NCBI GenBank assembly: GCA_963663995.1
Contig: OY760660.1
Location: 270,001-302,000 of the forward strand
Origin: Erysipelotrichaceae bacterium
GTDB taxonomy: Bacteria > Bacillota_I > Bacilli_A > Erysipelotrichales > Erysipelotrichaceae
Direction: 5' to 3'
DNA length: 32,000 nucleotides
The position numbers were made by a program, and so were the translations under genes. The notes beneath the pieces were generated by a model. That model was not told the DNA's origin and searched no databases. It worked only from the letters and a program-made list of their open reading frames with translations. Of this stretch, positions 7,436 through 27,741 are shown in pieces; positions within the stretch are counted from its first letter, which is position 1; every line of letters begins with the position of its first letter.

Positions 7436-7442
7436 TGTTTAA

Positions 7443-7448
7443 AGTATA
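7443..7448 (-). promoter_or_regulatory. -10 hexamer 7 nt upstream of the flavoprotein ATG (leaderless candidate)
   Basis: Minus strand reads TATACT-TTAAACA-ATG. No SD. Confidence 0.4.
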
Positions 7449-7529
7449 TCGGATAATTGTATAGTTAAACATCAATTTAAACTATTTAATGAATCACAGA
7501 GTGTAAATATACAGAGTGATATTTGAAAA

Positions 7530-7538
7530 TGCTATACT
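7530..7538 (+). promoter_or_regulatory. Extended -10 element 6 nt upstream of ATG 7545 (leaderless candidate)
   Basis: TGcTATACT (7530-7538), then TTGTTC, then ATG (7545). No SD. Confidence 0.5.
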
Positions 7539-7544
7539 TTGTTC

Positions 7545-8204
7545 ATGGAAAAAATACTCGAAAAATTAAAAATTGATCAGTTTAAAAATTGTGCGTTTCT
7601 TATGATACCTGATGATTTGAAAGAAGACTTTAAAAATTATAATCAAGAACCATTATCAAGGGATCATGATGCGATATTTGCTTTTAGTACAAGTCATTCA
7701 GAGTTCTTTACAAATTTAAAAGAACTCGTAGATAAAGATCTTTTATTAGATGGTGGCTCTTTATTTATTTGTTATCCTAAAAAGGGAAATAAAATCTATC
7801 CTGACTTTGTTCATCGCGACGAAATATTTGCTAAAGTGGAAATGGATGATGATGGATTTATATATCATTCGAAATATCGATTTAATCGTATGTTAGGATA
7901 CAATGATCAATTTACTTTGTTAGAAATAAAAAAAGAATTGAATTACAAAGCAAAAAACACTGTATCAACTCGTAAAGAAGATTATATTCATTTAATTCCT
8001 GAAGTCGAAAAACTCATTGAAAAGAACGCTAGTGCTTTAGCATTCTATAAAACTTTAAGTCCTGGTTATCGCAAAGATTGGGCAGTTCATATCTTTAGCG
8101 CAAAAACAGATGAGACAAAAAATAAACGCATAGAAGAAACCATTCATCTTTTAAATCAAGGGTTTAAGAATATGACCCTCTATCGACAATCTAAAAACAA
8201 GTAA
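7545..8204 (+). CDS. YdeI/OmpD-associated-like (DUF1801-type) protein
   Basis: ORF track starts at TTG 7539. ATG 7545 is preferred. The C-terminal segment YRKDWAVHIFSAKTDETKNKRIEE resembles the YdeI family. Confidence 0.55.
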   Translation: MEKILEKLKIDQFKNCAFLMIPDDLKEDFKNYNQEPLSRDHDAIFAFSTSHSEFFTNLKELVDKDLLLDGGSLFICYPKKGNKIYPDFVHRDEIFAKVEMDDDGFIYHSKYRFNRMLGYNDQFTLLEIKKELNYKAKNTVSTRKEDYIHLIPEVEKLIEKNASALAFYKTLSPGYRKDWAVHIFSAKTDETKNKRIEETIHLLNQGFKNMTLYRQSKNK

Positions 8205-8230
8205 AAAACCTTAGTTGATCTAAGGTTTTC
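8203..8230. terminator. Bidirectional terminator between the ydeI-like gene and lysR
   Basis: AACCTTAG (8207-8214) pairs with CTAAGGTT (8220-8227), loop TTGAT, flanked by an A-run and a T-run. Confidence 0.65.
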
Positions 8231-9136
8231 TTAACGACTCTTAAGCATATCCACATAGCGTTGAGCTAAGTGTGATAGTTCTTGGTTTTTCTTCCAAACA
8301 AGTGTTATTCGTGAAGGTGTCGATTGTCCTTGAATTGAACAAATTCTAATATCATCATTTCGTTCTAAGTCGACAAAAACTTTTGCGGAAGATTGAGAAA
8401 TAATTGATACACCTAAACCGTTTAAAGCCCAACTAATGGATGAGGTAATACTTTCATTTGAACATATGATTTGTGGGGCAAATCCTAGTTCTGCGCAAGC
8501 ATCAATAATTTTCTTTTCATCAATCGCATGAACAATTAATGGCTTTTGTGAAAGTTGTGCTAAACTAATCGATTCATTTGGAATATCATCAAACCATTTT
8601 TTCAAGCCGACCGCTACAAAGTTATTTGAAGTTTTTTCTAAATAACGCTCATCTTTCAAGACTAAATAGTTATAAAGACTGTGATTAAAGTTTTCTTTGA
8701 TGATTGCGATGTCGACTAAATCTTTATCTAAATTAGTTAGGGCTGCAATACTGCTAGACTCATGGATTTGGAATTCAACATTAGGAGTTGTTTTAAGAAA
8801 ATCATTTATTGATTTTGGGAGAAATCCCATCGATATTGTCCCAATCGTTCCGATTCTTAAAATTCCAGAAAATCCTTCTTTAATATTATTGAATTCATTG
8901 ATGATCGCATTATAGTTACTAATCATTATTTTAGCGTGATGTAGAAGTCTTTCACCCTCAGCCGTAATTTCCATTAACTTCTTTTTGCGAATAAAAAGTG
9001 TAACGCCTAATTCGTTCTCTAAACTTTTAAGTTGATTACTTAATGGTGGTTGAGAAATGTTGAGAACTTTAGCAGCCGATGTGATTTGCTTCTCTTCAGC
9101 AATCGTTACAAAATATCTTAATTGACGAATATCCAT
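8231..9136 (-). CDS. LysR family transcriptional regulator
   Basis: 301 aa. N-terminal MDIRQLRYFVTIAEEKQITSAAKVLNISQPPLSNQLKSLE HTH plus a LysR substrate-binding domain. GGAGGG SD. Confidence 0.9.
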   Translation of the reverse strand: MDIRQLRYFVTIAEEKQITSAAKVLNISQPPLSNQLKSLENELGVTLFIRKKKLMEITAEGERLLHHAKIMISNYNAIINEFNNIKEGFSGILRIGTIGTISMGFLPKSINDFLKTTPNVEFQIHESSSIAALTNLDKDLVDIAIIKENFNHSLYNYLVLKDERYLEKTSNNFVAVGLKKWFDDIPNESISLAQLSQKPLIVHAIDEKKIIDACAELGFAPQIICSNESITSSISWALNGLGVSIISQSSAKVFVDLERNDDIRICSIQGQSTPSRITLVWKKNQELSHLAQRYVDMLKSR

Positions 9137-9158
9137 ATTTATCCCTCCGATACTTTTA

Positions 9159-9164
9159 ATTATA
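9159..9164 (-). promoter_or_regulatory. Candidate -10 (TATAAT) for lysR
   Basis: Minus strand reads GTGTATAAT, about 20 nt upstream of the GGAGGG SD. Confidence 0.4.
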
Positions 9165-9222
9165 CACGAAAGATATGAAAGTGTATATGTATTATATGAA
9201 AAATGAATTTAAAACACATTAT

Positions 9223-9238
9223 TATATATATATATATA
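9223..9238. repeat. (TA)8 dinucleotide microsatellite in the lysR / HD-GYP divergent intergenic region
   Basis: Direct read: TATATATATATATATA. Confidence 0.95.
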
Positions 9239-9318
9239 ATCCTATAAATAATAAGCGTTTGTATTTGTGTTTTCCTAGTATAATACTTATTATATTCATA
9301 TAGATTAGGATACTGTTT

Positions 9319-10629
9319 ATGGGAAACAACAAAGAAGTAAAAATCAACATCTTATTACGTAAAAGAGAAATCGAGAACATTCGTATTAGTTTACTTGTTC
9401 GTCTTTTTTACATACTAGGAGTTGTTGCAACAGCCGTACTATATCCTCAAGGTACTTACGCAGTTCTCGTAAGCTTTTTAGTCTTAGCCATTAATAGTAT
9501 TTATTTTACTCTTGCTTGGAAGAATATCACTAATCGTAATAATTTAATTAATATTGCGATTTTAGGGGCAGCCATAGACATTACATTTATGTTAGTTATG
9601 CCATGGGTTTGGTATATGGCGGATGGTGGATTTACCTATCCATTAGTGCTCTTAATGAAAAACCCACTTCTATTTGTAAATGTTATGATTTTATTATTAA
9701 TAAATAGTTATTCTCTAAAATCGATAGCGGTTGGAATATATTCAAGTGGAATAGTTATCATCTTATTGATTAATCATATTCTTGTGATGACAAATACGAA
9801 TACAGTTCTTGCCTTAAATCGTGTCGAACATATTCTGTCTTATCAATATGATCCTAATCTTTTCTATATGATGTTATTTGCATTTACAATGTCCTCCATC
9901 GTTATTGCGATAAAACTACGACGTGATGAAAAAGTATTGGTTGAATTTGTTGGTTATGAAGCAGATTTAATAGGTGCTTTAGAAGAGCGTGATGATGCAT
10001 TTTCAAAAATTGAAGATGCTTATATGGAAATCATTGAACGTATCACTAAACTTACTGAATATTATGATGCAGAAACAGGTGAGCATATTCGTCGTACCCG
10101 TGGATATATTGAATTATTCTGTAAAGAACTAGGTTTATCAGACGAAGAAACTAAAAAAATTGCCGATGCAGCACCTTTACATGATATTGGTAAAATTGGT
10201 ATTCCTGATGCGATTCTTCAAAAGAAAGGCCCTTTAGATGCTGAAGAGTGGGAGATTATGAAATCTCATGCATTAATTGGTGCGGGTGCTTTAAGTGAAA
10301 GTGATGTTCCAGTTATTCAAATTGCTTGTCAAATTGCTTTAAGCCATCATGAAAAATATAATGGGAAAGGTTATCCATATGGTTTAAAAGGGGAAGAAAT
10401 ACCTCTAGCCGCTCGAATTATGGCGATCGCCGATGTCTATGATGCTTTAAGAAGTCCAAGACCTTATAAAGAAGGTTTTGATCATAACACAACCTACCAA
10501 ATAATTACGCAAGGTGATGTAAAGACACACCCTGAAGATTTCGATCCAAAGATTCTTAAAATCTTCAAAGAAAATCATAGAAAATTCCAAGAAATATATG
10601 ATCAATATGCCAATCATACAAAACATTAA
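9319..10629 (+). CDS. Membrane-anchored HD-GYP domain protein (putative c-di-GMP phosphodiesterase)
   Basis: 436 aa. About 200 aa of N-terminal hydrophobic helices, then an HD-GYP domain (LHDIGKIGIP, HHEKYNGKGYPYGL, ADVYDAL). Confidence 0.8.
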   Translation: MGNNKEVKINILLRKREIENIRISLLVRLFYILGVVATAVLYPQGTYAVLVSFLVLAINSIYFTLAWKNITNRNNLINIAILGAAIDITFMLVMPWVWYMADGGFTYPLVLLMKNPLLFVNVMILLLINSYSLKSIAVGIYSSGIVIILLINHILVMTNTNTVLALNRVEHILSYQYDPNLFYMMLFAFTMSSIVIAIKLRRDEKVLVEFVGYEADLIGALEERDDAFSKIEDAYMEIIERITKLTEYYDAETGEHIRRTRGYIELFCKELGLSDEETKKIADAAPLHDIGKIGIPDAILQKKGPLDAEEWEIMKSHALIGAGALSESDVPVIQIACQIALSHHEKYNGKGYPYGLKGEEIPLAARIMAIADVYDALRSPRPYKEGFDHNTTYQIITQGDVKTHPEDFDPKILKIFKENHRKFQEIYDQYANHTKH

Positions 10630-10672
10630 CAGCAGGATTTAAACGGGATTATTCATTAAAATGTAAAATTTT

Positions 10673-10701
10673 GAAAAAGTCTGAAAAGACTTTTTCATTT
10701 T
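10673..10701 (+). terminator. Intrinsic terminator after the HD-GYP gene
   Basis: AAAAAGTCT (10674-10682) pairs with AGACTTTTT (10687-10695), loop GAAA, then a T-rich tail. Confidence 0.7.
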
Positions 10702-10750
10702 CATTGTTCTTGGTGTAAAATAGATTTTAAGTTTATGAAAGAAGGAAACT

Positions 10751-11776
10751 ATGATTTACTTTGATAGCGATTATTTAGAGGGGGCTCATCCAAAAATTCT
10801 TGAAAAATTAGTTGAAACTAATCTTTATCAGGAACGAGGGTATGGCTACGATACCTATACACAATCAGCAAAAGAAAAAATACGTTTAGCTTGTCATAAA
10901 CCAGAAGCTGAAATATATTTTCTAGTGGGTGGAACCCAAACCAACTCATTAGTCATTAAATCGTTTTTAATGCCCTATGAAGGAGTTGTTTCACCTGATA
11001 GTGGACATATTGTTGATCATGAAGCTGGGGCGATTGAAGCGACGGGTCATAAAGTTATTACTGTAAAACATTCTCACGGTAAAATAACAGCTGCACAAAT
11101 TAAAAACTATATGGAAAACTTTCGTAAAGATCCATTAAAAGCACATATGGTTCAACCTGGTTTAGTCTATATCTCTCAACCTACAGAATTTGGAACACTT
11201 TACTCTAAATCTGAATTGGAGAATATCTATAAAATGGCACATGTTTATGACTTACCAGTCTACATTGATGGGGCTCGTTTAGGTTATGGCATCATGGCTT
11301 CAACAACTGATGTTGATTTAGATGTTATTTCAAATAACTGTGATGCTTTCTATATTGGTGGAACAAAAATTGGTGCTTTAATTGGTGAAGCTTTGGTATT
11401 CCCACGGCCTGGGCAAATAAAGCATATCTTCACCCATATCAAACAACATGGCGCATTACTTGCGAAAGGACGTGCTTTAGGGATTCAATTTGATACATTA
11501 TTTACTGATAACCTGTACTTTGATATTTCAAGACATGCGATTGTCTTAGCTGAAAAACTTAGACAAGGGTTTAAAGATAAGGGCTATCACTTCTATTTAG
11601 ATTCACCCACAAATCAACAATTTATTATTCTAGATAATTTAAAAATAAGAAAATTACAGAAGGATTTCTCCTTTACTTTATGGAAACCAATTGGCGTTAA
11701 TAAGTGGGTTTGTCGCTTTTGTACTTCTTGGGCGACTACAGAGGATCAAGTTAACCAACTCCTCAATGCGATTTAA
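10751..11776 (+). CDS. Threonine aldolase / beta-eliminating lyase family PLP-dependent enzyme
   Basis: 341 aa. Fold-type I PLP enzyme features and a YIGGTKIGAL lysine motif resembling Firmicute low-specificity threonine aldolases. Confidence 0.65.
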   Translation: MIYFDSDYLEGAHPKILEKLVETNLYQERGYGYDTYTQSAKEKIRLACHKPEAEIYFLVGGTQTNSLVIKSFLMPYEGVVSPDSGHIVDHEAGAIEATGHKVITVKHSHGKITAAQIKNYMENFRKDPLKAHMVQPGLVYISQPTEFGTLYSKSELENIYKMAHVYDLPVYIDGARLGYGIMASTTDVDLDVISNNCDAFYIGGTKIGALIGEALVFPRPGQIKHIFTHIKQHGALLAKGRALGIQFDTLFTDNLYFDISRHAIVLAEKLRQGFKDKGYHFYLDSPTNQQFIILDNLKIRKLQKDFSFTLWKPIGVNKWVCRFCTSWATTEDQVNQLLNAI

Positions 11777-11862
11777 ATAGATTGTTAAGACAATGTAAAG
11801 ATAAGCGATTGGAATGTTATTTCATCGCTTTCTTGTATACTTTCTAACGATAGGAGAGTTTT

Positions 11863-12222
11863 ATGCATCACATTCGAAATTTCATTGGTTACTTCATTGC
11901 TGGGTTTTGTGCCATGTTGTTGTGGCCGATGCTTGCAGATTTTTTAAATATAGGCTTATTTGGAAACTGGATTGCTGCTGTTTTAATTATTGGACCACTT
12001 TGGTTTATCAATCATCATATAGGTTTAATTAAACATCATGAGGAAAGTGCTTTTGTTGATATGGCTATTGGAATTGGGGTCGCTGGTTTATCAAAAGGTT
12101 ATTTCATTGATGGATTAAGTGGCTTATTTGAGTCATTACCAACCCTTATATTGGTAATCTTGGGTGGATCGTTTGGTGGATTCTTGGCTTATATCGTAGA
12201 AAAGAGAAGTAAAATAGCATGA
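11863..12222 (+). CDS. Small 4-TM membrane protein, paralogue A (family not recognised)
   Basis: 119 aa, four hydrophobic segments, AGGAG SD. Shares the motifs (W/F)IAAxLIIGxxWxxNHxxGLI, VDMA and LPxLxxxxLGG with the next ORF. Confidence 0.7.
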   Translation: MHHIRNFIGYFIAGFCAMLLWPMLADFLNIGLFGNWIAAVLIIGPLWFINHHIGLIKHHEESAFVDMAIGIGVAGLSKGYFIDGLSGLFESLPTLILVILGGSFGGFLAYIVEKRSKIA

Positions 12223-12557
12223 CGATTCCACAAGCACTATTTACTTTTATGGGGGCAGCTCTTTTTCCGTTTTTTGTCATTTTATTTTTTGACAAATTTG
12301 TGCATAAATTTGGTGGTATCGGTGGTTTTATAGCAGCAGGTTTAATTATCGGTAATATGTGGTTAGTCAATCATGGCTTTGGTTTAATCACACAAAGTGG
12401 ACCTGTATGGGTTGATATGGCATTTGCAGCAGGTTCTGGTGTATTTGTTTCAACCTTACTCCATCAAGGAAAATTATCAAAAGCACTCCCAAATCTATTT
12501 GTAGCTTTCTTAGGTGGACTTATCGCTGGAGCGATAATATCAATAATTTTAAACTAA
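12219..12557 (+). CDS. Small 4-TM membrane protein, paralogue B
   Basis: 112 aa. Start overlaps the stop of paralogue A (ATGA). Shares the same motifs. Confidence 0.7.
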   Translation: MTIPQALFTFMGAALFPFFVILFFDKFVHKFGGIGGFIAAGLIIGNMWLVNHGFGLITQSGPVWVDMAFAAGSGVFVSTLLHQGKLSKALPNLFVAFLGGLIAGAIISIILN

Positions 12558-12578
12558 CTATCAATTTGATAGTTTTTT
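12556..12578 (+). terminator. Intrinsic terminator after the small-membrane-protein pair
   Basis: AACTATCA (12556-12563) pairs with TGATAGTT (12567-12574), loop ATT, then TTTT. Confidence 0.65.
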
Positions 12579-12580
12579 AT

Positions 12581-12628
12581 TTGACAAGTTTTAATAATTG
12601 TATTAATGTATTAATCAAATAATACAAG
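12581..12628 (+). promoter_or_regulatory. Promoter plus candidate GntR operator for the ytrA-like operon
   Basis: TTGACA (12581-12586), 17-nt spacer, TAATGT (12604-12609). Tandem TGTATTAA x2 (12599-12614). Inverted repeat TTGTATTA (12598-12605) / TAATACAA (12620-12627). Confidence 0.5.
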
Positions 12629-12639
12629 AAAGGAAGAGC

Positions 12640-13017
12640 ATGGAACAATTTAATTCAAATCAACCCATCTACCTTCAAATCGTAGAACGTATTAAAAAAG
12701 AAATCGTCTCTGGCCAACTTAAAGCTGATGAACAATTATCTACGGTTCGCGATCTCGCGCTAAAATATCAAGTTAATCCAAATACGGTACAAAGAGCATT
12801 TAGTGAACTTGAAAGAGATGGTTTAGTGAGAAGTGAAAGAACAGCAGGTCGCTATGTCAGTTCTGATGAAAAATTAATTGATTCACTTAAAAAACAAATG
12901 ATTGAAGAAAAAATAGAAGCGTTTGTACATGAGCTAAATCAACTAAATATTAGTTTAAATGAAAGTCTCGAATATATAAAAATAGCTTATGAGAAGGAGG
13001 AAAACAAAAATGATTGA
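12640..13017 (+). CDS. GntR family regulator, YtrA subfamily (short C-terminal domain)
   Basis: 125 aa. wHTH region PIYLQIVERIKKEIVSGQLKADEQLSTVRDLALKYQVNPNTVQRAFSELERDGLV. Only ~50 aa follow the wHTH. Confidence 0.85.
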   Translation: MEQFNSNQPIYLQIVERIKKEIVSGQLKADEQLSTVRDLALKYQVNPNTVQRAFSELERDGLVRSERTAGRYVSSDEKLIDSLKKQMIEEKIEAFVHELNQLNISLNESLEYIKIAYEKEENKND

Positions 13018-15885: not shown

Positions 15886-16323
15886 ATGAAATCACAAAAT
15901 GTCATAATTCAAAAAGTTTTAAATGATTATAAGAAGGCAGTTGAAGCAAACGATGAAGCATTGCTTTTATCATTATATTGTCATGATGCTCATCTCTATG
16001 ATTGTTGGGATGACTGGGAATTAAGAAGCAATGACGAAATAAAAAAGATGATCAATCTTTGGTTTAGTGGTTTAAATGCTGAAAGAGTACATTTAAAAGT
16101 TGATTTTGAAGATATATCGATTGATCAAGATGAAAGAATATCTAGTCTTCATTGTCTTATCTTATTTGCAGCTTATGATGATAATAATGTCAAATTAAGA
16201 CAAATTAAAAATCGTTTCACCTTTTTATTAAAGCGTGAAGAAAATCAGTGGCGAATTTATCATCAACATTCTTCTTTGCCAATTTCGTCTGAGACAGGGA
16301 AAATGATCCTTTTAACAAAATAA
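15886..16323 (+). CDS. SnoaL-like / NTF2-fold (DUF4440-type) protein
   Basis: 145 aa. The pattern (DAHLYDCWDDWE ... QWRIYHQHSS) resembles NTF2-like small proteins. Weak call. Confidence 0.45.
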   Translation: MKSQNVIIQKVLNDYKKAVEANDEALLLSLYCHDAHLYDCWDDWELRSNDEIKKMINLWFSGLNAERVHLKVDFEDISIDQDERISSLHCLILFAAYDDNNVKLRQIKNRFTFLLKREENQWRIYHQHSSLPISSETGKMILLTK

Positions 16324-16365
16324 AGAGGCTGTAACGAATAAACAGGCTCAAGAATAGAAGTAAAG

Positions 16366-16400
16366 GAAAAGGTCCAGGCATTACGCTTGGACCTTTTCTT
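16366..16400 (+). terminator. Intrinsic terminator at the IS1182 left end, immediately upstream of the transposase -10 box
   Basis: GAAAAGGTCCAGGC (16366-16379) pairs with GCTTGGACCTTTTC (16385-16398, one G.U), loop ATTAC, T-rich tail. Confidence 0.7.
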
Positions 16401-16415
16401 AGATATAATTTAGTC

Positions 16416-17972
16416 ATGGAAAATATAAATATTCGTCATGAGCTAAACCACTACCCGAACACTAGTGATTATAGCTCAACCCAAGTCGTTTTGCCACTTG
16501 ATTGTGGAATTTTAATTGAAACAAATGATCCAGTGATGAGTTTTAATCAAATCATGGATGAAATTAATCTTAAAGTGTTCGTTAAGAGATATACAAAAGG
16601 TCGCCATGATTATGAAGAGATCACATTGATTAAGCTTTTATTGTTTGCTTATATGAATCAGATAACGAGTCTAAGAAAGATTGAATCAGCCTGTAAAACA
16701 GATATTCGATTTATCTGGTTATCAAAAGGGATACGCCCGAGTCATATGACTTTTTATCGCTTGATGAAGGAAAGACTTAAAGGGCGATTTGAAGATTTGT
16801 TTTATGAAATTAATAAAGTGCTTATTCGTAAAGATCACATAGATACCAGTGTTCTCTATATCGATGGAACGAAGTTTGAAGCGAATGCGACGAAGAATAG
16901 TTTTGTTTGGAAGAAAGCAGTGTTGAAGAACCAAAAGAAGTTATTTGAAAAGATTAGTGCTTTTTATAAAACTTATTCATTAGAAACAAAGTCTAGTTAT
17001 CACGCTGATGATTTAAGTGAATTCAAGATGGCTTTATACAATGACTGTTTACTTAAAAAGATTGAGTTTGTCAGTGGTAAAGGACATCCTAAACATCCTT
17101 TACAAAAAGCTTATGAAACAATTAGAGATTATCAAAACAAGTTAATCGAATATGAGATTCATCTACAAATCTGTGGAGATCGAAACAGTTACTCTAAAAC
17201 TGATCATGATGCGACCTTTATGCATATGAAAGAAGACTATTATATGCGAACAGGCATCTTTAAACCTGGCTATAATGTGCAGCTAGGGGTCAGTGATGAA
17301 TATATCATGATGGCTAAAACTTATCCTAACCCAACAGACACGAAAACCTTTATCCCTTTTCTAGAAGCGTATAAGAAAGCTTATGGTCATTATCCTAAGA
17401 CACCCGTCGCAGATGCAGGCTATGGAAGTTATGATAATTATCTCTATTGTGTGACACGCGGTATGGAACTCTTTCAAAAATATAGTCTTTATGAACAGGA
17501 AAAACATGGAGTTAAGAAGAAACAAAAATTTCAATCTAAATCCATGAGACAAGAAGATGGATCCTTTATCTGTCCTGAAGGGAAATCCTTTAACTACGTC
17601 GATTCTCATTTAGATGAAAAAGGTTTATATCCTAAATTGATTCATCATTATCAGTGTATTGATTGTACAGACTGTCCTTTAGCTAAAGACTGTAAGAAAA
17701 GTGAAGCTAATCGACAGTTGAGTATTAATCCTGTTCTCTTAGAACTACAGTCCATCGCTAAAGAAAACTTAGATAGTGAGCGAGGGATACAATTAAGAAT
17801 GAATCGATCTGCACAATCAGAATCAACCTTTGGAATCCTTAAATATAACTGGGGAAAACAAAGATTTACACGTCGTGGTAAAGAAAATGTGGATAACGAG
17901 TTATATTGCCTCTGTATTGGCTATAACTTAATGAAATATCATTCAAGAAAACTAAGACATAAACTCAATTAA
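16416..17972 (+). CDS. IS1182 family (IS5-like DDE) transposase
   Basis: 518 aa. The N-terminal region and the C-terminal motif RSAQSESTFGILKYNWGKQRFTRRG...YNLMKY are typical of IS1182-family transposases. Confidence 0.85.
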   Translation: MENINIRHELNHYPNTSDYSSTQVVLPLDCGILIETNDPVMSFNQIMDEINLKVFVKRYTKGRHDYEEITLIKLLLFAYMNQITSLRKIESACKTDIRFIWLSKGIRPSHMTFYRLMKERLKGRFEDLFYEINKVLIRKDHIDTSVLYIDGTKFEANATKNSFVWKKAVLKNQKKLFEKISAFYKTYSLETKSSYHADDLSEFKMALYNDCLLKKIEFVSGKGHPKHPLQKAYETIRDYQNKLIEYEIHLQICGDRNSYSKTDHDATFMHMKEDYYMRTGIFKPGYNVQLGVSDEYIMMAKTYPNPTDTKTFIPFLEAYKKAYGHYPKTPVADAGYGSYDNYLYCVTRGMELFQKYSLYEQEKHGVKKKQKFQSKSMRQEDGSFICPEGKSFNYVDSHLDEKGLYPKLIHHYQCIDCTDCPLAKDCKKSEANRQLSINPVLLELQSIAKENLDSERGIQLRMNRSAQSESTFGILKYNWGKQRFTRRGKENVDNELYCLCIGYNLMKYHSRKLRHKLN

Positions 17973-18062
17973 ATAGTTATAAAACCTTAAAAGTTCTTTT
18001 TAAGTCGTCTAGTTTTCTAAATTTAATCCAAAAAAATATCAAAACCATCAGATTAAACAAAA

Positions 18063-18140
18063 AAAGAAGCTGTAACGCCTCTAGTTTCGTTTTCATCCAT
18101 ACCATGGATATTCACTATTCTATTTCGTTACAGCCTCTTT
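18063..18140 (-). terminator. Large-loop hairpin plus T7 run (minus strand) formed by the subterminal repeat and the right IR; likely terminates the DUF2202 gene
   Basis: AGAAGCTGTAACG (18065-18077) pairs with CGTTACAGCCTCT (18126-18138, 1 mismatch). The loop contains the ATCCAT/ATGGAT mini-hairpin. On the minus strand it is followed by TTTTTTT (18065-18059). Confidence 0.45.
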
Positions 18141-18962: not shown

Positions 18963-19069
18963 TCAGCTATGACAAAACAGTGACAAGGATAAGACAAAGT
19001 GGTAAAGAACTTGTGAGTAATTTACATCAAAGAATACTACTTTCGTCTACTATTATTTTCTTTTAACAT

Positions 19070-19078
19070 TGGTAAACT
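19070..19078 (+). promoter_or_regulatory. Extended -10 element 6 nt upstream of ATG 19085 (leaderless candidate)
   Basis: TGgTAAACT, then ATGAAT, then ATG. No SD. Confidence 0.5.
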
Positions 19079-19084
19079 ATGAAT

Positions 19085-19816
19085 ATGGACTATATAAAGA
19101 TAAATAAAGTGTCGAAAATACCGATTTATGAACAAATTGAGTCATCGATTGAATTAGCCATCAATAATAATGACCTTGTTCATCAGTATCAATTACCGAC
19201 CGAAAAGGAAATTTCAGAGTTTTATAACATTTCCATTGGAAGTGTTAAAAGAGCGCTTATCAACTTAGAAGATAGAGATTTGATCTATCGAATAAAAGGG
19301 AAAGGGTCTTTTGTTAATAATCGTCCACATAGTACATTTAGCTTAAAACAATTGAAGTTAGATGAGCCTTTTGATTGTGATTTTTACTCAGCCCTTGTTG
19401 AAAAGAAGAAAAGTGAGAAATACGAATATGCCATTTCTAAGCAGTTTACTTGTCCTAATCTTTACCATGTTGTTCGGATTTACAATGATAATGTTTTTTC
19501 ACTCATTGTTGAAGAAAGTTATTTAGCTGAAAAAGCATTTAGACATATTGAATATGAATTAATAAAGGAAACACCAATTACAGCTATTATTGATCATTAT
19601 TCTTTAAGCAGTTTAAAGAAACAAGTTAATACGATGTATGCAGAAAAAGCTGATTCTAAACTTGCTAAAATCTTTGCGATTAAAGTGAATGATCCAATAT
19701 CCTGTATTAATAGTACTTACTTTAATACAAATGGAGATGTTGTTGCGGTAATTATCCGTAAAGTACCAAGTGAGTATACCTTAATAGAAAGTGAGACCAA
19801 ACATGTACAATCTTAA
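19085..19816 (+). CDS. GntR family regulator, HutC subfamily (wHTH + UTRA)
   Basis: Contains IPIYEQIESSIELAI...LPTEKEISEFYNISIGSVKRALINLEDRDLIYRIKGKGSFV, then a ~150-aa UTRA-like domain. Track start is 19079; ATG 19085 is preferred. Confidence 0.8.
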   Translation: MDYIKINKVSKIPIYEQIESSIELAINNNDLVHQYQLPTEKEISEFYNISIGSVKRALINLEDRDLIYRIKGKGSFVNNRPHSTFSLKQLKLDEPFDCDFYSALVEKKKSEKYEYAISKQFTCPNLYHVVRIYNDNVFSLIVEESYLAEKAFRHIEYELIKETPITAIIDHYSLSSLKKQVNTMYAEKADSKLAKIFAIKVNDPISCINSTYFNTNGDVVAVIIRKVPSEYTLIESETKHVQS

Positions 19817-20534: not shown

Positions 20535-20556
20535 TAACGCTTAATAGGAGCGTTTT

Positions 20557-21182: not shown

Positions 21183-21208
21183 ATGGTTTAGAGGAAATGA
21201 GGAGAAAT

Positions 21209-21673: not shown

Positions 21674-21712
21674 AAAGGTCTAGACATCTTGATGATGTTT
21701 AGACCTTTCTTT
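21673..21712. terminator. Bidirectional terminator between the flavodoxin-like gene (+) and gltB (-)
   Basis: AAAGGTCTA (21674-21682) pairs with TAGACCTTT (21700-21708), flanked by an A-run and a T-run. Confidence 0.65.
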
Positions 21713-21714
21713 AA

Positions 21715-24700
21715 TTAACGAGATTCATTAAAGACTTCAAGTTGAGCATTTTGATAACTTAAGCCTTCTTTTAACTTCTCTTCAATCTTTAAGTGGATAC
21801 TATGTAATTCACTTGGATAAACTTTAACGAATGCTTTGGATGTACTTGGCCAATTCTTGAGAATTGATTTTGCAAGTTCACTATCGGTTAAGCTTACGTG
21901 TTTTTCGATTCGTTGTTTTAGATAAGTTTTTTCATCAGTAGAAATATCATATAAATCAACCATATCTAAATTTGCTTTTGTTTCTAATTCTTGTTTAGGA
22001 TCATAAACATAAGCGATTCCACCTGACATACCGGCCGCAAAATTAAATCCAAATTGACCTAAAATAATAACTTCACCATTGGTCATATATTCACAACCAT
22101 GGTTACCGATACCTTCAACAATTAATTTTGCCCCTGAGTTTCTTACCGCAAAACGCTCACCAGCACAACCGTTGATATAAGCTTCACCAGATGTTGCCCC
22201 AAAGAAAGCAACATTTCCAATAATGCTGTTCTCTTCTGCTTTGTAGTCTAAATCTTGGTAACGTTTAACAATAATGCTTCCACCAGATAAACCTTTACCA
22301 CAGTAGTCATTTACATAACCTTCAAGATTCAAGGTAATACCACTTGGAATAAAAGCACCAAAGCTTTGTCCAGCAACCCCTTTTAAATCAAGCACAAAGT
22401 TATTTTCAGGTAAGCCATTTCCACCATATCGTTTAGTGATTTCATGACCAAATTGAGTTCCAAAAGTACGATCAACATTGCTAATTGAAAATGTAGCTTG
22501 TTGAGATAATGCTTTTTTAAGACTTTGTTTGAAATAAGGAATTACGATTTTTTGGTCTAATGATTTATGAAGTGAATGATTGGGGGAGATATGTCCATAT
22601 TCAGCTTGCGTATTGTTTAGGATGTTTGATAAATCAATTTTATTTCTAAAATCTACTTGTTGTAAGATTTCAGTATGACCAACCATTTCATTGATGGTTC
22701 TAAAGCCAAGTTCTGCCATAATTTCTCGAACTTCTTCAGCAATATACAACATGAAATTAACGACATACTCTGGTTTACCAATGTATTTTTCACGACGTTG
22801 AGGATTTTGAGTCGCGATACCCATCGGACAAGTATCCATATGACAAACCCTTGCCATAACACAACCTAAAGCGACAAGAGGGGCAGTCGCAAAACCAAAT
22901 TCTTCAGCCCCTAATAATGCTGCAATCACAACATCACGCCCAGAAATTAATTTACCATCTGTCTCGAGTTTAATTCGTGATCTTAAGTTATTTAAAATGA
23001 GTGTTTGATGTGTTTCTGCTAAACCTAATTCCCAAGGTAAACCAGCATGTTGAATAGAACTTAATGGAGATGCACCAGTGCCACCATCATGACCACTGAT
23101 TAGAATTCCATCAGCACGACCTTTTGCAACTCCAGCGGCTATCGTCCCAACTCCATTTTCAGAAACTAGTTTAACCGATACTTTTGCACTACTATTAGCA
23201 TTTTTCATATCGTGAATAAGCTGTGCTAAATCTTCGATACTATAAATGTCGTGATGAGGAGGAGGGGAGATTAATGTAACCCCTAAAGTAGAATTACGGG
23301 CTTTCGCAATCCATGGCCATACTTTCATTCCAGGTAGTTGACCACCTTCACCAGGTTTTGCTCCTTGAGCCATTTTGATTTGAATTTCTTGGGCTTGAGA
23401 TAAATATTCTGATGTTACCCCAAAGCGACCTGAAGCAATTTGTTTAATGGCTGAATTACGAGAATCCAAGCCCTTATCTAAATAACGAGCCGGATCTTCT
23501 CCACCTTCACCTGTATTACTTTTTGCATGTAAACGATTCATCGCAATCGCTAAAGCTTCATGTGCTTCAGGTGATATCGAACCATATGACATTGCGCCTG
23601 TTTTAAAACGTTTAACAATTTCTCGGGCAGGTTCTACTTCATCAAGTGGTACTGAAATACTTTCTTTGAAACCCATTAATGAACGAATATTTATCGGACC
23701 AAATTCAGGACTGTTTAAATCAGCAGTGACTTTTTTAAAGAGTTCATAATTTGCACTCATTACAGCTTCTTGTAAACCTTTAATGGTGTCTGGATTATAA
23801 ATGTGGGATTCTCCACCTTTTTTAAATCTAAAAATTGAACCAGGATCAATACTTGTTTCACTTTCAGCTTTTTCAATGCGTTTAACAATTGCTTGAGCAA
23901 TGTCGTTTAAATCAAGTCCACCAATCCGAGAAACGGTATTGGTAAAGTATTTATCAATTAGTTTGGTTGAGATACCCAAAGCTTCAAAAATTTGAGCACC
24001 TTGATAAGATTGTAAAGTTGAAATACCCATTTTTGACATGATTTTAACAATTCCCGACAAAGAAGCTTTTAAGTAATTCTCTTGAGCTTTTTCAATCTCT
24101 AAATCTTTTAATTGTCCGTCACTTACAAATTTCGAGACTAAATCTAAAGCAAGATATGGGTAGATAGCACTTGCCCCATAGCCAACAAGTAAGGCAAAAT
24201 GATGTGTTTCTTTGGCTTCAGCACTTTCTACAATTAAGGATACGCGTGTACGTGTACCTTGAGCTGTTAAGTGTTGGTGCATACCTGATAAAGCTAATAA
24301 TGAAGGGATTGGTAAATGGTTTTTATCCCAATTGCGATCTGAAAGGATTAGAAGGGTATAACCTTCAGCAATGGCTTCATCGGCTTTTTTAAATAAGTCA
24401 TTTAAAGCTTTCTCTAAATCTTGTCCCGTTTCTCCACTGAATGTTGCATTTAAACGAATCGCATTTAAACCTTCACGTTTACAATTCAAAATCTTTTTAA
24501 ATTGTTCATGACTTAACATTGGGCTATCGAGTTTTAAACGACGAGCATCTTCTTCTTTGACATCAAGTAGATTTCCAATACCACCTAAGTCCATTTGTGT
24601 AGACATCATCATTCGCTCTCTTAAAGCGTCAATAGGTGGATTAGTAACTTGGGCAAAAGTTTGTTTGAAATAGGCGAATAAGTTTTGATCAGATTTAGAA

Positions 24701-26238
24701 AGGATTGCTAAAGGACCATCATGACCCATTGAAGCAATATTTTCTTTACCATCTCTTGCCATCGGTAAAAGAATATTTATTCTTTCTTCTAAAGTATAGG
24801 CAAAAGCTTTTTGCCACTTATTTAAATCATCAACTGATTTTTCGACTTCACAGTCACAATCAGGTAGTTTATCAATATGGACTTGTTGCTTGTCTAACCA
24901 TGTTTTATAAGGTTTTGCTTTTGCAATCGTATTTTTGATTTCATCATTTCTAATAAATGACTTTTTATTAGTATCAATGTATAAAAGTTCACCTGGTTTT
25001 ACTTGGCCACTTTCAACAATATTCTTTGGATCAATATCAAGAACACCAATTTCCGATGCGATAACTAATCGATTATCTTTGGTTAAAATATAACGAGAAG
25101 GACGTAAACCATTACGATCTAGTGTAGCCGCAACATTTTCGCCATCAGTAATGACCATAGCAGCAGGACCATCCCATGCCTCCATGTGTAATTGTGAAAA
25201 AGCATAGAATGATTTTAATTCTTCAGGTAAATCTTTGTTTTCCCAAGGTTCAGGAATCATCATCATGATGGCTTGGGCTAAAGGAATACCTGCTTCAACT
25301 AAAAATTCTAATGTATTATCAAAAATCGATGAATCCGATCCATTATCGAAAACAATCGGTAAAAGTCTTTGCATATTGTCGCCAAAAACATTATTAACGA
25401 GAGAATTTTGACGTGCTTTCATTCGATTTAAGTTACCACGTAAGGTATTGATTTCACCATTATGAATCAACATACGATATGGATGTGCTCTTTCCCAAGA
25501 AGGGAAGGTATTTGTAGAATAACGTGAGTGAACTAAAGCAATAGCTGAAGTATAATTTAAATCCTGTAAGTCTAAGTAAAAACCATCTACTTGTTCAGCT
25601 GTTAACATCCCTTTATAAACAATCGTTTTAGAGGATAATGACGAAAAGTAAAAATAATCATCATCTGATTCGTGCATTTCTTTTGTGATGTGCTCACAAC
25701 GTTTGCGAATAACATAGAGTAATCGTTCAAAAGATTCATCACTTGTATCATCACTTGCTTGAATAAAGAGTTGACGCACATGTGGTCGATTCGCACGAGC
25801 ACTTACACTTAAAACAGCTTCTTGAACAGGAACATAACGCCAACCTAATGTAATTTGATGTTCTTCTTCAACAAGTCTTTCTATGACTTCTTGAATTCTT
25901 AAACGTTGTTGTTTGTGACGTGGTAAAAAGACCATCCCGACACCATATCGTTTAAAGGCAGGTAGTTCAAAACCTAATTCAATCGATCTAAAATATGCAT
26001 CAGGAATTTGGGTTAATATTCCAGCTCCATCCCCGTTTTCCTCAATCGAACCAGCACCACCTCTGTGTGCGAGTCTTCTTAAAACATTTAGGGCGTCTGC
26101 AACAATTGAGTGACTTTTAATGCCATCAATTTGGGTTATACAACCAATTCCACATGCATCATGTTCGAATTGTGGGTTGTATAGATTTTGCGCTTTAGGG
26201 TAACCTAAGCTTTTGTTAGTGTACTTTTCATTAAACAT
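21715..26238 (-). CDS. gltB: Glutamate synthase large subunit
   Basis: About 1507 aa. Ntn amidotransferase Cys (FEHDACGIG), central and FMN-binding domains, and a C-terminal GXGXG-type domain. Track start is 26253; the second ATG, 26238, is preferred (see leaderless finding). Confidence 0.95.
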   Translation of the reverse strand: MFNEKYTNKSLGYPKAQNLYNPQFEHDACGIGCITQIDGIKSHSIVADALNVLRRLAHRGGAGSIEENGDGAGILTQIPDAYFRSIELGFELPAFKRYGVGMVFLPRHKQQRLRIQEVIERLVEEEHQITLGWRYVPVQEAVLSVSARANRPHVRQLFIQASDDTSDESFERLLYVIRKRCEHITKEMHESDDDYFYFSSLSSKTIVYKGMLTAEQVDGFYLDLQDLNYTSAIALVHSRYSTNTFPSWERAHPYRMLIHNGEINTLRGNLNRMKARQNSLVNNVFGDNMQRLLPIVFDNGSDSSIFDNTLEFLVEAGIPLAQAIMMMIPEPWENKDLPEELKSFYAFSQLHMEAWDGPAAMVITDGENVAATLDRNGLRPSRYILTKDNRLVIASEIGVLDIDPKNIVESGQVKPGELLYIDTNKKSFIRNDEIKNTIAKAKPYKTWLDKQQVHIDKLPDCDCEVEKSVDDLNKWQKAFAYTLEERINILLPMARDGKENIASMGHDGPLAILSKSDQNLFAYFKQTFAQVTNPPIDALRERMMMSTQMDLGGIGNLLDVKEEDARRLKLDSPMLSHEQFKKILNCKREGLNAIRLNATFSGETGQDLEKALNDLFKKADEAIAEGYTLLILSDRNWDKNHLPIPSLLALSGMHQHLTAQGTRTRVSLIVESAEAKETHHFALLVGYGASAIYPYLALDLVSKFVSDGQLKDLEIEKAQENYLKASLSGIVKIMSKMGISTLQSYQGAQIFEALGISTKLIDKYFTNTVSRIGGLDLNDIAQAIVKRIEKAESETSIDPGSIFRFKKGGESHIYNPDTIKGLQEAVMSANYELFKKVTADLNSPEFGPINIRSLMGFKESISVPLDEVEPAREIVKRFKTGAMSYGSISPEAHEALAIAMNRLHAKSNTGEGGEDPARYLDKGLDSRNSAIKQIASGRFGVTSEYLSQAQEIQIKMAQGAKPGEGGQLPGMKVWPWIAKARNSTLGVTLISPPPHHDIYSIEDLAQLIHDMKNANSSAKVSVKLVSENGVGTIAAGVAKGRADGILISGHDGGTGASPLSSIQHAGLPWELGLAETHQTLILNNLRSRIKLETDGKLISGRDVVIAALLGAEEFGFATAPLVALGCVMARVCHMDTCPMGIATQNPQRREKYIGKPEYVVNFMLYIAEEVREIMAELGFRTINEMVGHTEILQQVDFRNKIDLSNILNNTQAEYGHISPNHSLHKSLDQKIVIPYFKQSLKKALSQQATFSISNVDRTFGTQFGHEITKRYGGNGLPENNFVLDLKGVAGQSFGAFIPSGITLNLEGYVNDYCGKGLSGGSIIVKRYQDLDYKAEENSIIGNVAFFGATSGEAYINGCAGERFAVRNSGAKLIVEGIGNHGCEYMTNGEVIILGQFGFNFAAGMSGGIAYVYDPKQELETKANLDMVDLYDISTDEKTYLKQRIEKHVSLTDSELAKSILKNWPSTSKAFVKVYPSELHSIHLKIEEKLKEGLSYQNAQLEVFNESR

Positions 26239-26303
26239 GGTTAGATTATACATAAAAAGTAGTCTTTTTTCACTAAGTATACAGTGACTTACATGAAAGA
26301 AAT

Positions 26304-26333
26304 TTCAAAAAAAGAACACATCAAGTGTTCTTT
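26304..26333 (-). terminator. Intrinsic terminator after the M23 peptidase gene, separating it from gltB
   Basis: AAAGAACAC (26311-26319) pairs with GTGTTCTTT (26325-26333), loop ATCAA. A T-run follows on the minus strand (A-run 26305-26313 on plus). Confidence 0.65.
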
Positions 26334-26345
26334 GTAAGTTATTCA

Positions 26346-27515
26346 TTAATTTAAATAGTTAAGTGGGTTTTGATAGCTACCATTTTTTAAGACTTCAAAG
26401 TGTAAATGGGTTCCAGTAACATAACCAGTTTTTCCCATACCTGCAATTTTTTGTCCAGCATTTACGGTATCACCAACACTCACACCAATCGTATTTAAGT
26501 GTCCATATTTAGTGACTAATCCATTACCATGATCTATAGCAATACAATTACCTAAAGCACCTTCCCAACCAGCAGTAATAACAGTACCGGCAGCATATGC
26601 ATAAATAGGTGTATTTAAACTGTTTGAGATATCAATGCCTGAGTGGAATGTTCTAACCCCAGTAATAGGATGGGTACGATAACCAAAATAACTTTGGAAA
26701 GTACCATTAGTCACACCGAAGTTACCGCCAGTGTCACGCATTACAGTTGCTTTTGTACCAACTTTAACAACATGAGTACTAGCTTCTTCAAGGATTGTTT
26801 CATTTAAGACAATCGTTTCTTGAGCAACACCATTAAGTAAAGTAATCTTATACTCAACTTCTTTTAAGCCTTCAACACCTTGTTCAATAATTGTTCTTTC
26901 ATCTGCATATAAACTACTATCTTTAATCGTTTCAACTTCATAAGGGATAACTTCTTCAACAATATTTGTGAAACTGATTTTTACATCGATAACAGGATCA
27001 GCAGCTTCTAATAAGATTTCATCACCTGGGTGAATGAGTTCAGGATCTAAACTTGGATTTAGTAAAATAATACTATCAATGGAGACTTGATAGTTTTCAG
27101 CAATCTTCCAAACATTATCGCCTTCTTGAACAACCACGATTTCGGCTGATGTTTCAGTTTGAGATAAATAATCTCGCAATAGATCTAAACTATCATACGC
27201 ATTTCCATCAATTTTAGTTTCTCTAATCTCAATTTTTTGAAGGAACTCCATACTTTCGATTTGAGCATTTTCATCTACTAAAGCGAAATAACTCTCTTTG
27301 TATTGATCTAAAACTTCTTGCACTTCTTCAACATTTTGGAAGGTATAAAGGATTTCATCGTCAACAACGAATTGATATGCTTTATTTAAGATTAATGATC
27401 GTGGTTGAATTCCTTGAGTAGGAATTAACATCATCACGAATAATATAAAGAAAAACCCAAATAATAAATGGGATTTTGATAGTTTGTTTAAGGTTTGATT
27501 TATTTTGTCTCGCAT
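26346..27515 (-). CDS. Membrane-anchored LysM-G5-M23 peptidoglycan endopeptidase
   Basis: N-terminal TM anchor, LysM (VVVQEGDNVWKIAENYQVSIDSIILLNP), a G5-like segment, and M23 motifs HSGIDI and HLHFEV. Track start is GTG 27563; ATG 27515 is preferred. Confidence 0.85.
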   Translation of the reverse strand: MRDKINQTLNKLSKSHLLFGFFFILFVMMLIPTQGIQPRSLILNKAYQFVVDDEILYTFQNVEEVQEVLDQYKESYFALVDENAQIESMEFLQKIEIRETKIDGNAYDSLDLLRDYLSQTETSAEIVVVQEGDNVWKIAENYQVSIDSIILLNPSLDPELIHPGDEILLEAADPVIDVKISFTNIVEEVIPYEVETIKDSSLYADERTIIEQGVEGLKEVEYKITLLNGVAQETIVLNETILEEASTHVVKVGTKATVMRDTGGNFGVTNGTFQSYFGYRTHPITGVRTFHSGIDISNSLNTPIYAYAAGTVITAGWEGALGNCIAIDHGNGLVTKYGHLNTIGVSVGDTVNAGQKIAGMGKTGYVTGTHLHFEVLKNGSYQNPLNYLN

Positions 27516-27642
27516 GAAACTATTATAGTAGAAAATGACTAAAAATATTGTGTCTTTTTTCACATATTTTCTCAGCTATTTAAATTTATATATATTATGT
27601 TGTTTTTTAGATGAAAAACCATATAACTTTAATAGTATTTAG

Positions 27643-27651
27643 TGTTAAAAT
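27643..27651 (+). promoter_or_regulatory. Extended -10 element 6 nt upstream of the 27-aa ORF
   Basis: TGtTAAAAT (27643-27651), then TTATCT, then ATG 27658. Confidence 0.45.
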
Positions 27652-27657
27652 TTATCT

Positions 27658-27741
27658 ATGTCAATGATCTTTTTAATAGGTTTAGGTATAGTCTTTATAT
27701 TTATTGCGATTGTCGCAACACTAGCCTTCATCAAACACTAA
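27658..27741 (+). CDS. Unlisted small ORF: 27-aa single-TM hydrophobic peptide (MSMIFLIGLGIVFIFIAIVATLAFIKH)
   Basis: Hand translation. An extended -10 lies at the leaderless spacing, and a terminator hairpin begins 5 nt after the stop codon. Too short to appear in the ORF track. Confidence 0.45.
   Translation: MSMIFLIGLGIVFIFIAIVATLAFIKH

Follow-up and report, generated by a model that had tools for sequence, protein, structure and literature searches.

In the window, the whole 32,000-nt stretch of DNA analysed, seven listed genes start 6–7 nt downstream of a -10 hexamer with no Shine-Dalgarno (SD) sequence, and these are very probably genes for leaderless mRNAs. The source lineage is an uncultured low-GC member of the Bacillota (32% GC), with Erysipelothrix and Acholeplasma/Haploplasma as its nearest named relatives. 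The pattern was found in 7–8 of about 30 window genes (about 25%, a small sample), roughly a third of the transcription units, and coexists with SD-led genes that have strong SDs on very short leaders. The housekeeping sigma factor would bind the TATAAT-like -10 box, which is extended by TGn at the weaker hexamers. With the A of the ATG counted as +1, the box lies at -12 to -7, so RNA polymerase would start on this A and the mRNA would begin with 5'-AUG, at which ribosomes would initiate directly without SD pairing. We infer the sigma factor, the ribosome initiation mode and the transcription start position, the last from the canonical distance between -10 and +1. Sequence evidence supports the -10 boxes as functional and as placed for transcription to start at the A of the ATG.

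The seven "-10, 6–7 nt, ATG" sites reported in the initial annotation were all read in the sequence. They are listed below with a possible eighth case.

7433–7448, minus strand: flavoprotein (HI0933-like), TATACT 7448–7443, 7 nt, ATG 7435, SD-less
7530–7547, plus strand: ydeI/OmdA-like gene (Pfam OmdA), extended -10 TGcTATACT 7530–7538, 6 nt, ATG 7545
16364–16418, plus strand: transposase start at the left end of an IS1182 element, hairpin 16364–16400, TATAAT 16404–16409, 6 nt, ATG 16416
19034–19087, plus strand: candidate promoter of a GntR/HutC regulator, extended -10 TGgTAAACT 19070–19078, 6 nt, ATG 19085
26236–26273, minus strand: candidate gltB promoter, -35-like GTGAAA 26273–26268, 17 nt, TATAAT 26250–26245, 6 nt, ATG 26238
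27513–27527, minus strand: M23/LysM/G5 peptidase, TATAAT 27527–27522, 6 nt, ATG 27515
27643–27741, plus strand: 27-aa hydrophobic small protein, TGtTAAAAT 27643–27651, 6 nt, ATG 27658, stop 27741
30484–30522, minus strand: first mgtE gene, possible eighth case, not among the seven sites annotated initially, TTGGTT 30522–30517, 17 nt, TAAAAT 30499–30494, 7 nt, ATG 30486

The absence of an SD claimed for the seven sites was confirmed, with no match of at least 4 nt to the SD core (AAGGAGGTGAT) at -18 to -4, and mgtE likewise had none. The scan of this upstream region gave an SD match for 17 other window genes. The SDs named earlier for other genes, those besides the AKR gene being checked, were present as AGGAG, GGAGG, AAGGAGG or similar. 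The start codon was ATG at every site, and the spacing was 6 nt in six cases and 7 nt in two, mgtE included. Upstream of each candidate gene lies an intergenic region, a divergent gene or a terminator-like hairpin, which places the gene first in its transcription unit. The TGn extension was restricted to sites with non-consensus hexamers, and a pyrimidine at -1 with A at +1 was found in 6 of 8 sites and likewise, among the relatives, at the orthologous sites that were read. Both features are as expected of genuine promoters and start sites. At most sites, -35 elements were poor or missing, and a two-hexamer promoter scan showed no enrichment over shuffles (53 found vs. 70 expected), so the promoter assignment depends on the -10 box alone. 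No Rfam leader RNA was detected in the entire window.

The possibility of chance was considered, since TATAAT-like hexamers are common in intergenic DNA of 28% GC and internal ATGs could have been picked to fit. Of the intergenic positions, 1.1% carried a strict hexamer, defined as TAnnnT with at least 5 of 6 matches to TATAAT, and 4% carried any TAnnnT; moreover, four of the seven starts differ from the longest-ORF start. At the strict density, about 0.7–1.3 matches would be expected at a spacing of 6–7 nt over 30–60 candidate starts. Strict matches were found at six of the seven listed sites and at mgtE, with a Poisson probability of about 7e-6 to 5e-4 for at least seven. The spacing histogram of the window contained four cases at 6 nt and two at 7 nt, with none at 4, 5 or 8–11 nt. 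A -10 box at 6 or 7 nt was present in 8 of 12 SD-less genes vs. 0 of 17 SD genes (Fisher P = 1e-4). The wider sample, drawn from the window and related loci, comprised about 150 genes with 219 candidate ATGs, orthologous sites being statistically non-independent. It gave 15 strict -10 boxes at 6 nt and three at 7 nt. Counts were near zero at spacings of 0–5 and 8 nt, and a second mode at about 21–25 nt corresponded to SD-led genes with short leaders. Control low-GC loci from other lineages were processed identically, alternative ATGs being admitted there too, and yielded 0/178 at 6–7 nt compared with 18/219 (Fisher P = 2.4e-5). The 6–7 nt peak is clade-specific. The sharp peak with empty neighbouring positions, the low Poisson and Fisher P values, the empty controls and the conservation in relatives, including genomes of 38–43% GC, make chance a very improbable explanation.

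Relatives at 50–80% protein identity retained the -10 box, the ATG and a spacer of 6 nt amid diverged flanks for the M23 peptidase (five lineages), gltB (three), HutC (four), the ydeI-like gene (two) and the IS1182 transposase (seven other copies). For M23, TATAATA-N4-C-ATG was unchanged in the window and in related loci L086, L087, L089 (43% GC) and L090 (38% GC), whereas the more distant L091 carried an SD in place of this block. The whole gltB arrangement of GTGAAA, 16/17-nt spacer, TATAAT, 6 nt and ATG was kept in L086 and L087/88. HutC relatives had TGaTAAACT, TGtTAAACT or TGtTAGAAT followed by 6 nt and ATG, always with TGn, and a conserved 19-nt element upstream of the gene (19034–19052) is a candidate operator. 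The mgtE block TTGGTT-17-TAAAAT-7-ATGGAA was kept in L086, with ATG 30513 missing there.

The longest-ORF calls for four genes had been suspected of over-extension. Their longer-ORF starts were all present (TTG 7539 for the ydeI-like gene, ATG 19079 for HutC, ATG 26253 for gltB and GTG 27563 for M23), and the suspicion held because relatives lose or frameshift these upstream starts, with homolog lengths fitting the short forms. The ydeI homolog in L083 reads TGaTATACT-7nt-ATG, and there the longer-ORF TTG falls out of frame. ATG 19079 was ATA in 3/3 HutC relatives, whose called length is 238–243 aa. ATG 26253 was AGG in L086, and the gltB call in L087 starts at an ATG overlapping the -10 box. 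The GTG 27563 extension of M23 was frameshifted in L087, and most homologs are 389 aa long vs. 405 aa in the call of the source genome. The lost starts and homolog lengths thus support the proposed ATG as the probable N-terminus of the protein.

The flavoprotein and the 27-aa gene are the weaker cases, because their relatives have 6–12 nt spacings or an SD-led leader. The flavoprotein can only start at 7435, since a TAA stands in frame just 2 codons before it and its GxGxxG motif (IIGAGPAG, residues 6–13) runs from residue 8. Its relatives were SD-less with variable spacing: TAAGAT-6 or TATACT-12 in L082 and TATACT-9 in L081, with a terminator-like hairpin directly 5' of the hexamer. The 27-aa peptide was conserved in L087/88 (MSFVYILGIGSFILVIALIGILAFIKH), where a leader with a strong SD (AAGGGGGAAG) precedes it. 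Therefore, the gene is real, and its leaderless state would be particular to the lineage of the window.

Two genes alternate between the leaderless and SD-led forms among relatives. A further gene of the window was compared with its L086 ortholog.

30607–30630, plus strand: start of a TM1506-family gene, TAGGAT, 15-nt spacer containing GGAG, ATG 30628

The window sequence was TAGGAT-agttatGGAGacttt-ATG vs. the SD-less TAGGAT-agtagat(7)-ATG of L086. The TM1506 gene of the window is the SD-led counterpart to a putatively leaderless ortholog in L086.

The transposase start belongs to a complete mobile element, the ends of which were set by comparison with seven other copies in unrelated flanks.

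16322–18140, plus strand: IS1182-family insertion sequence, perfect 17-bp terminal inverted repeats 16322–16338 and 18124–18140

The transposase had Pfam matches to DDE_Tnp_1_6, DDE_Tnp_1 and DUF772, with E-values of 2.4e-11 for DUF772 and 2.6e-29 for DDE_Tnp_1_6. The tblastn matches were annotated as IS1182 family transposases, plasmid homologs included, and close homologs were all 518 aa long. Both the transposase domains and the repeat-bounded, multi-copy, single-ORF structure (about 1.3–2 kb) of the IS1182 family were observed. The left-end hairpin is terminator-like, with 16 bp, a T-run and a fold of -25.6 kcal/mol. The hairpin, TATAAT, 6-nt spacer and ATG were shared by copies at 68–93% protein identity, and the loop alone varied. 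This hairpin would stop read-through arriving from outside the element. A read-through transcript would be leadered without an SD, so only mRNAs initiated at the weak promoter of the element itself would be translated. The layout suggests a simple way of insulating a transposase from host read-through transcription.

Two further explanations were considered. In one, transcription starts further upstream, and the hexamer acts in the mRNA as an unstructured A/U-rich landing site for the ribosome or S1, giving leadered, SD-independent mRNAs. This reading gains from the weak -35 boxes and from alternative upstream promoter-like pairs for the 27-aa gene and for mgtE, where TTGAAA-18-TATATT (30573–30544) would imply a leader about 50 nt long. 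At least one other window gene, starting at 2366, has neither an SD nor a nearby -10, so SD-independent initiation is probably present in this organism. However, an A/U-rich enhancer would need no exact TAnnnT register, TGn, fixed 6-nt distance or pyrimidine at -1 with A at +1. The terminator-like hairpin directly 5' of the hexamer in the IS element, and in relatives for the flavoprotein, moreover leaves no room for an upstream promoter on the same transcript. Leadered mRNAs are therefore an unlikely explanation of the pattern.

Alternatively, the promoters may be real with a start 1–5 nt before the ATG or at a variable position, giving very short leaders in place of strictly leaderless mRNAs. 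Spacings of 7, 9 and 12 nt in the window and relatives (the L081 and L082 flavoproteins, the L086 PRT gene and L081 gene 16666, for example) are consistent with this. The commonest spacing, however, is exactly 6 nt, for which the canonical +1 is the A, and mapped transcription start sites of a related mollicute lie 6–7 nt past the -10 box (PMC7745072). Very short leaders are judged unlikely, slightly more so than SD-independent leaders, and leaderless transcription is preferred. Functionally, there is little difference between very short leaders and leaderless initiation.

In low-GC Firmicutes, leaderless initiation is generally regarded as rare. The classical leaderless genes are single cases, such as lambda cI from PRM, Tn1721 tetR, and actinomycete resistance genes, including those for aminoglycosides. 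The classical cases and the window both include regulators and mobile-element genes, here GntR/HutC and the IS transposase. The classical cases are isolated exceptions in SD-dominated genomes, whereas the window pattern recurs in the housekeeping gene gltB and in a cell-wall hydrolase.

Leaderless architecture is already known in bacteria as a mechanism, and its frequency here is unusually high for the group. In the group C genomes of GeneMarkS-2 (Actinobacteria, e.g., M. tuberculosis, and Deinococcus-Thermus), the predicted leaderless share is 25–50% of operons; in Firmicutes, 36 of 1064 genomes (3.4%) fall into group C (PMC6028130). In Deinococcus, experiments validated an ORF-adjacent -10 motif as the promoter from which leaderless genes are expressed (PMC12340547). 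Group C and the window share a Pribnow-type -10 box 6–8 nt from an SD-less, operon-first start, alongside SD-led genes. The GC content of group C genomes, however, is high or medium, and their TAnnnT has an uninformative middle, while the source genome has 32% GC, with a near-consensus TATAAT or TGnTAxAxT. Zheng et al. (2011) reported leaderless genes in Firmicutes (Lactococcus/Streptococcus, Oenococcus/Leuconostoc and Mycoplasma) with a mean of 4.2% and a maximum of 16.6% of genes, and some Firmicutes have TGnTAtAAT-type leaderless signals (PMC3160421). Like the window, these genomes show a low-GC TAtAAT signal that is preceded by a TG peak and sits around -10 with respect to the start codon. 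Their shares are low compared with about 25% in the window (7–8 of about 30 genes, a small sample), which comes from a different, uncultured branch close to Erysipelotrichales/Acholeplasmatales. In Mesoplasma florum, of a related Bacilli/Mollicutes lineage, promoters are likewise -10-dominated, and transcription starts 6–7 bases past the -10 box, preferably at purines and in some cases exactly on start codons (PMC7745072). M. florum has only about nine leaderless genes; the share in the lineage of the window appears far higher.

The following combination is proposed tentatively. Wall-bearing Bacilli near the Erysipelotrichales/Acholeplasmatales split may have about one third of their transcription units leaderless, above any share in Firmicutes in the cited literature; genes may switch readily between the leaderless and SD-led forms when short indels arise in the interval from a fixed -10 box to the ATG; and IS1182 may join an insulating terminator to a leaderless transposase, making read-through untranslatable. 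None of these findings would change the known mechanism. If true, a lineage with about a quarter of its genes leaderless beside genes with strong SDs would offer a useful natural model of coexisting initiation modes. It could show how genes move between modes and how this relates to reductive evolution towards Mollicutes. Standard callers over-extend these proteins and overlook the conserved 27-aa membrane protein entirely. Leaderless-aware callers would help with MAGs of the lineage.

The seven sites proposed in the initial annotation as leaderless genes, each a -10 hexamer followed by 6–7 nt and an ATG, were re-read in the window (32 kb, ~32% GC, ~30 genes). All seven were found as described. 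They are listed below as read from the sequence, together with one gene that has a Shine-Dalgarno sequence (SD).

HI0933-like flavoprotein, minus strand: TATACT, 7 nt, ATG 7435
ydeI/OmdA-like gene, plus strand: TGcTATACT, 6 nt, ATG 7545
IS1182-family transposase, plus strand: TATAAT, 6 nt, ATG 16416
GntR/HutC regulator, plus strand: TGgTAAACT, 6 nt, ATG 19085
gltB, minus strand: TATAAT, 6 nt, ATG 26238
LysM-G5-M23 peptidase, minus strand: TATAAT, 6 nt, ATG 27515
27-aa ORF, plus strand: TGtTAAAAT, 6 nt, ATG 27658
First DUF6905-like membrane gene, 11863: SD-led, with a -10 of the 21–25-nt mode

The gene names agreed with Pfam assignments. None of the seven sites (0/7) had a match of at least 4 nt to the SD core, and clear SDs (e.g., AGGAG, GGAGG, AAGGAGG) were present at 17 other genes among those preceding the AKR gene at the end of the window. 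The four upstream in-frame starts that ORF calling would choose, TTG 7539, ATG 19079, ATG 26253, and GTG 27563, were also present.

The intergenic DNA of the window has a GC content of 28%, and 1.1% of its positions carry a strict -10 hexamer, defined as TAnnnT matching TATAAT at five or six bases. At this frequency, about 0.7–1.3 matches would be expected at a spacing of 6–7 nt over 30–60 candidate starts. Seven strict matches were found, in addition to TGgTAAACT (4/6), with P ~7e-6 to 5e-4. A spacing histogram was built from a crude ORF-based gene list with all in-frame ATGs near ORF 5' ends, a procedure as free in its choice of starts as the first reading. In the window, strict hexamers fell at spacing 6 (n = 4) and spacing 7 (n = 2), with none at 4, 5, or 8–11. 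When related loci were added, the 219 candidate ATGs included 15 with a strict hexamer at 6 nt and 3 with one at 7 nt; identically processed control loci gave 0/178 at 6–7 nt (Fisher P = 2.4e-5). The controls were ten low-GC loci of other lineages (Bacillaceae, Sedimentibacter, and others), obtained by a gltB search of genome contigs, with matches of at most 56% identity in unrelated phyla, which gave no usable synteny. Within the window, the hexamer occurred at 6–7 nt in 8 of 12 SD-less genes vs. 0 of 17 SD genes (P = 1e-4). A second -10 mode, ~21–25 nt before the ATG, was observed at SD genes, e.g., lysR 9136. This distance implies very short SD leaders of ~15 nt, with little beyond the SD. 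The leaderless interpretation was supported by these spacing statistics and by comparison with relatives.

Loci of relatives at 50–82% protein identity were compared: L081 and L086 from one relative (1.96-Mb ENA contig, ERZ21878193 ctg13477c), L082–L085 and L087–L088 from others, and the further loci L089 (43% GC), L090 (38% GC), and L091 (34% GC). The flavoprotein was 100% identical to a protein encoded on a 1.95-Mb contig. The nearest named relatives, Erysipelothrix and Acholeplasma/Haploplasma, showed ~50% identity. At the M23 gene, TATAATA-N4-C-ATG was invariant in the window, L086, L087/88, L089, and L090, and the remaining upstream DNA diverged. The more distant L091 had an AAGGGG SD instead of this block. 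The M23 protein is 389 aa long in most homologs, and the source-genome call (P0241) is 405 aa, which confirmed the predicted over-extension by ORF calling. Translation of the extension from GTG 27563 was rejected: it is missing from most homologs and frameshifted in L087, where its 16 codons are represented by 47 nt and are thus out of frame. An M23-alignment search of metagenome contigs gave only distant M23 domains and no member of the clade. For gltB, the arrangement GTGAAA, 16/17-nt spacer, TATAAT, 6 nt, ATG was kept in L086 and L087/88. The upstream ATG 26253 is AGG in L086, and in L087 the gene caller chose an ATG overlapping the -10 box.

Two exact copies of the 12-mer GTGAAAAAAGAC were found in the window, both on the minus strand and upstream of these genes (27563–27552 at M23; 26273–26262 at gltB). 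The -35-like GTGAAA of gltB comes from it. The M23 copy was kept in L086 and differed by one base in L087; the gltB copy had two changes in L086. GTGAAAAAAGAC may serve both genes as a site for one regulator, or may act like an UP element. The source genome also encodes a second M23 peptidase (P0127, 79% identical).

Three relatives had TGaTAAACT, TGtTAAACT, or TGtTAGAAT, then 6 nt and ATG, at the HutC gene, and in all three the upstream ATG 19079 is ATA. The 19-nt element ATACTACTTTCGTCTACTA (19034–19052, ~-51 to -33 from the HutC ATG) showed almost no variation among four lineages. This element, which overlaps the -35 region, is a candidate operator for autoregulation by the HutC-type regulator. 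The ydeI-like gene in L083 had TGaTATACT, 7 nt, ATG; with this 7-nt spacer, the longer-ORF TTG is out of frame. An in-frame TAA two codons before the flavoprotein ATG, together with GxGxxG at residues 8–13, fixes the start of this gene. A downstream SD-led start was rejected because this FAD-binding motif would be lost. In relatives, the flavoprotein gene had no SD, and -10-like hexamers directly following the lysR terminator lay 6, 9, or 12 nt from the start, so its transcripts would be leaderless or almost leaderless. The flavoprotein is the least tidy of the seven cases. A ydeI-like gene between lysR and the flavoprotein gene was found only in the lineage of the window (7436–8230); in relatives (L081 9950–10001; L082 9960–10001) the flavoprotein gene immediately follows the lysR terminator. 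This position suggests that the flavoprotein promoter region was rebuilt through rearrangement.

The 27-aa ORF lies divergently upstream of the M23 gene and encodes a hydrophobic peptide, MSMIFLIGLGIVFIFIAIVATLAFIKH in the window (27658–27741) and MSFVYILGIGSFILVIALIGILAFIKH in L087/88 (~9559–9642, minus strand of L087). It is absent from the gene calls of related loci but is a real gene. In L087/88 the ORF is preceded by a leader with a strong SD. The TM1506 gene had a leaderless-type TAGGAT-7-ATG in L086 (~6817–6837, minus strand of the locus) and, in the window (30607–30630), TAGGAT, a 15-nt spacer with a GGAG SD, and ATG. TM1506 thus apparently switched initiation mode through a small indel. 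Mode switching between lineages was therefore seen in two genes, TM1506 and the 27-aa gene, in opposite directions. Further candidates were found in unrelated genes of relatives: SelO and LplA (L089), Fic (L083), and the TM1506 gene of L086.

The TGn extension occurred only at hexamers departing from TATAAT (ydeI, HutC, and the 27-aa gene), and orthologs retained it. A pyrimidine at -1 with A at +1 was present at six of eight window sites and likewise at the orthologous sites read in relatives. A two-hexamer promoter scan (53 found vs. 70 expected from shuffles) showed no enrichment, which makes -35 boxes uninformative in this DNA; a score of 10/12 was reached by the gltB promoter and an upstream mgtE candidate only. 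The promoters of the seven sites look -10-dominated, with weak -35 boxes. The mgtE candidate, a TTGAAA-18-TATATT pair, is the rival promoter for the first of two tandem mgtE paralogs (27770–30522). ATG 30486 is the probable start of this first gene: TTGGTT-17-TAAAAT-7-ATG was kept in L086, where ATG 30513 is absent. Upstream of the paralogs, neither an M-box nor any other Rfam riboswitch was found. Rfam and tRNA scans of the window gave no matches, and thus no riboswitch leader of an Rfam family contradicts or explains the pattern. The gene for a 713-aa membrane protein (start 2366, minus strand) had no SD within 18 nt and no nearby -10, with AAGGAAAG ~22 nt upstream. The organism may therefore also use SD-independent leadered initiation.

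Because a canonical -10 hexamer occupies -12 to -7, a gap of 6 nt would make the A of the ATG position +1. In Mesoplasma florum, a related mollicute, mapped transcription start sites lie 6–7 bases after the -10, with purines preferred (PMC7745072). From this geometry and these start sites, it is quite likely that the genes, taken as a set, give 5'-AUG mRNAs translated without SD pairing; where transcription starts, which sigma factor acts, and how ribosomes initiate are inferred. By gene, M23, gltB, HutC, and the IS transposase ranked highest, followed by ydeI, the flavoprotein, and then the 27-aa gene and mgtE.

The architecture is an established bacterial leaderless type, and this lineage is a further case of it. 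In GeneMarkS-2 group C, the Pribnow box lies 6–8 nt from the start and 25–50% of operons are leaderless; the group is common in Actinobacteria and Deinococcus-Thermus and includes only 3.4% of Firmicutes (PMC6028130). In Deinococcus, the role of the -10 motif was experimentally validated (PMC12340547). Zheng et al. reported TGnTAtAAT-type leaderless signals in some Firmicutes (Lactococcus/Streptococcus and Oenococcus/Leuconostoc clades, and Mycoplasma), with a mean of 4.2% and a maximum of 16.6% leaderless genes (PMC3160421). For M. florum, the number of leaderless genes is only about nine (PMC7745072). The share of 7–8 in ~30 genes, from one window and a few related loci, is high for low-GC Bacillota. 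The result has practical value for start-codon annotation. Of moderate scientific interest are the frequency of leaderless genes in an uncultured Bacilli lineage, the lability between leaderless and SD-led initiation, and an IS element with the same design.

The IS1182-family element (16322–18140) is complete, and its terminal inverted repeats of 17 bp are perfect. A tblastn search of the transposase against plasmids gave only ~35%-identity homologs, which were too divergent for placing the IS ends. Seven metagenome copies with 68–93% protein identity and unrelated flanks were therefore used. The copies all kept a hairpin of 16 bp (-25.6 kcal/mol) and its T-run, then TATAAT, 6 nt, and ATG, and the transposase is 518 aa in all close homologs. 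This conserved terminator-like hairpin upstream of the -10 would block read-through transcription. A leadered read-through transposase mRNA would have no SD and would be poorly translated, and the transposase would thereby stay under its own weak promoter. The copies L092–L098, from wastewater and other metagenomes, had the same ends. A third, imperfect repeat copy (18061–18077) can pair with the right end of the IS, and in L092 and L094 a further transposase gene from this family lies directly upstream of the IS.
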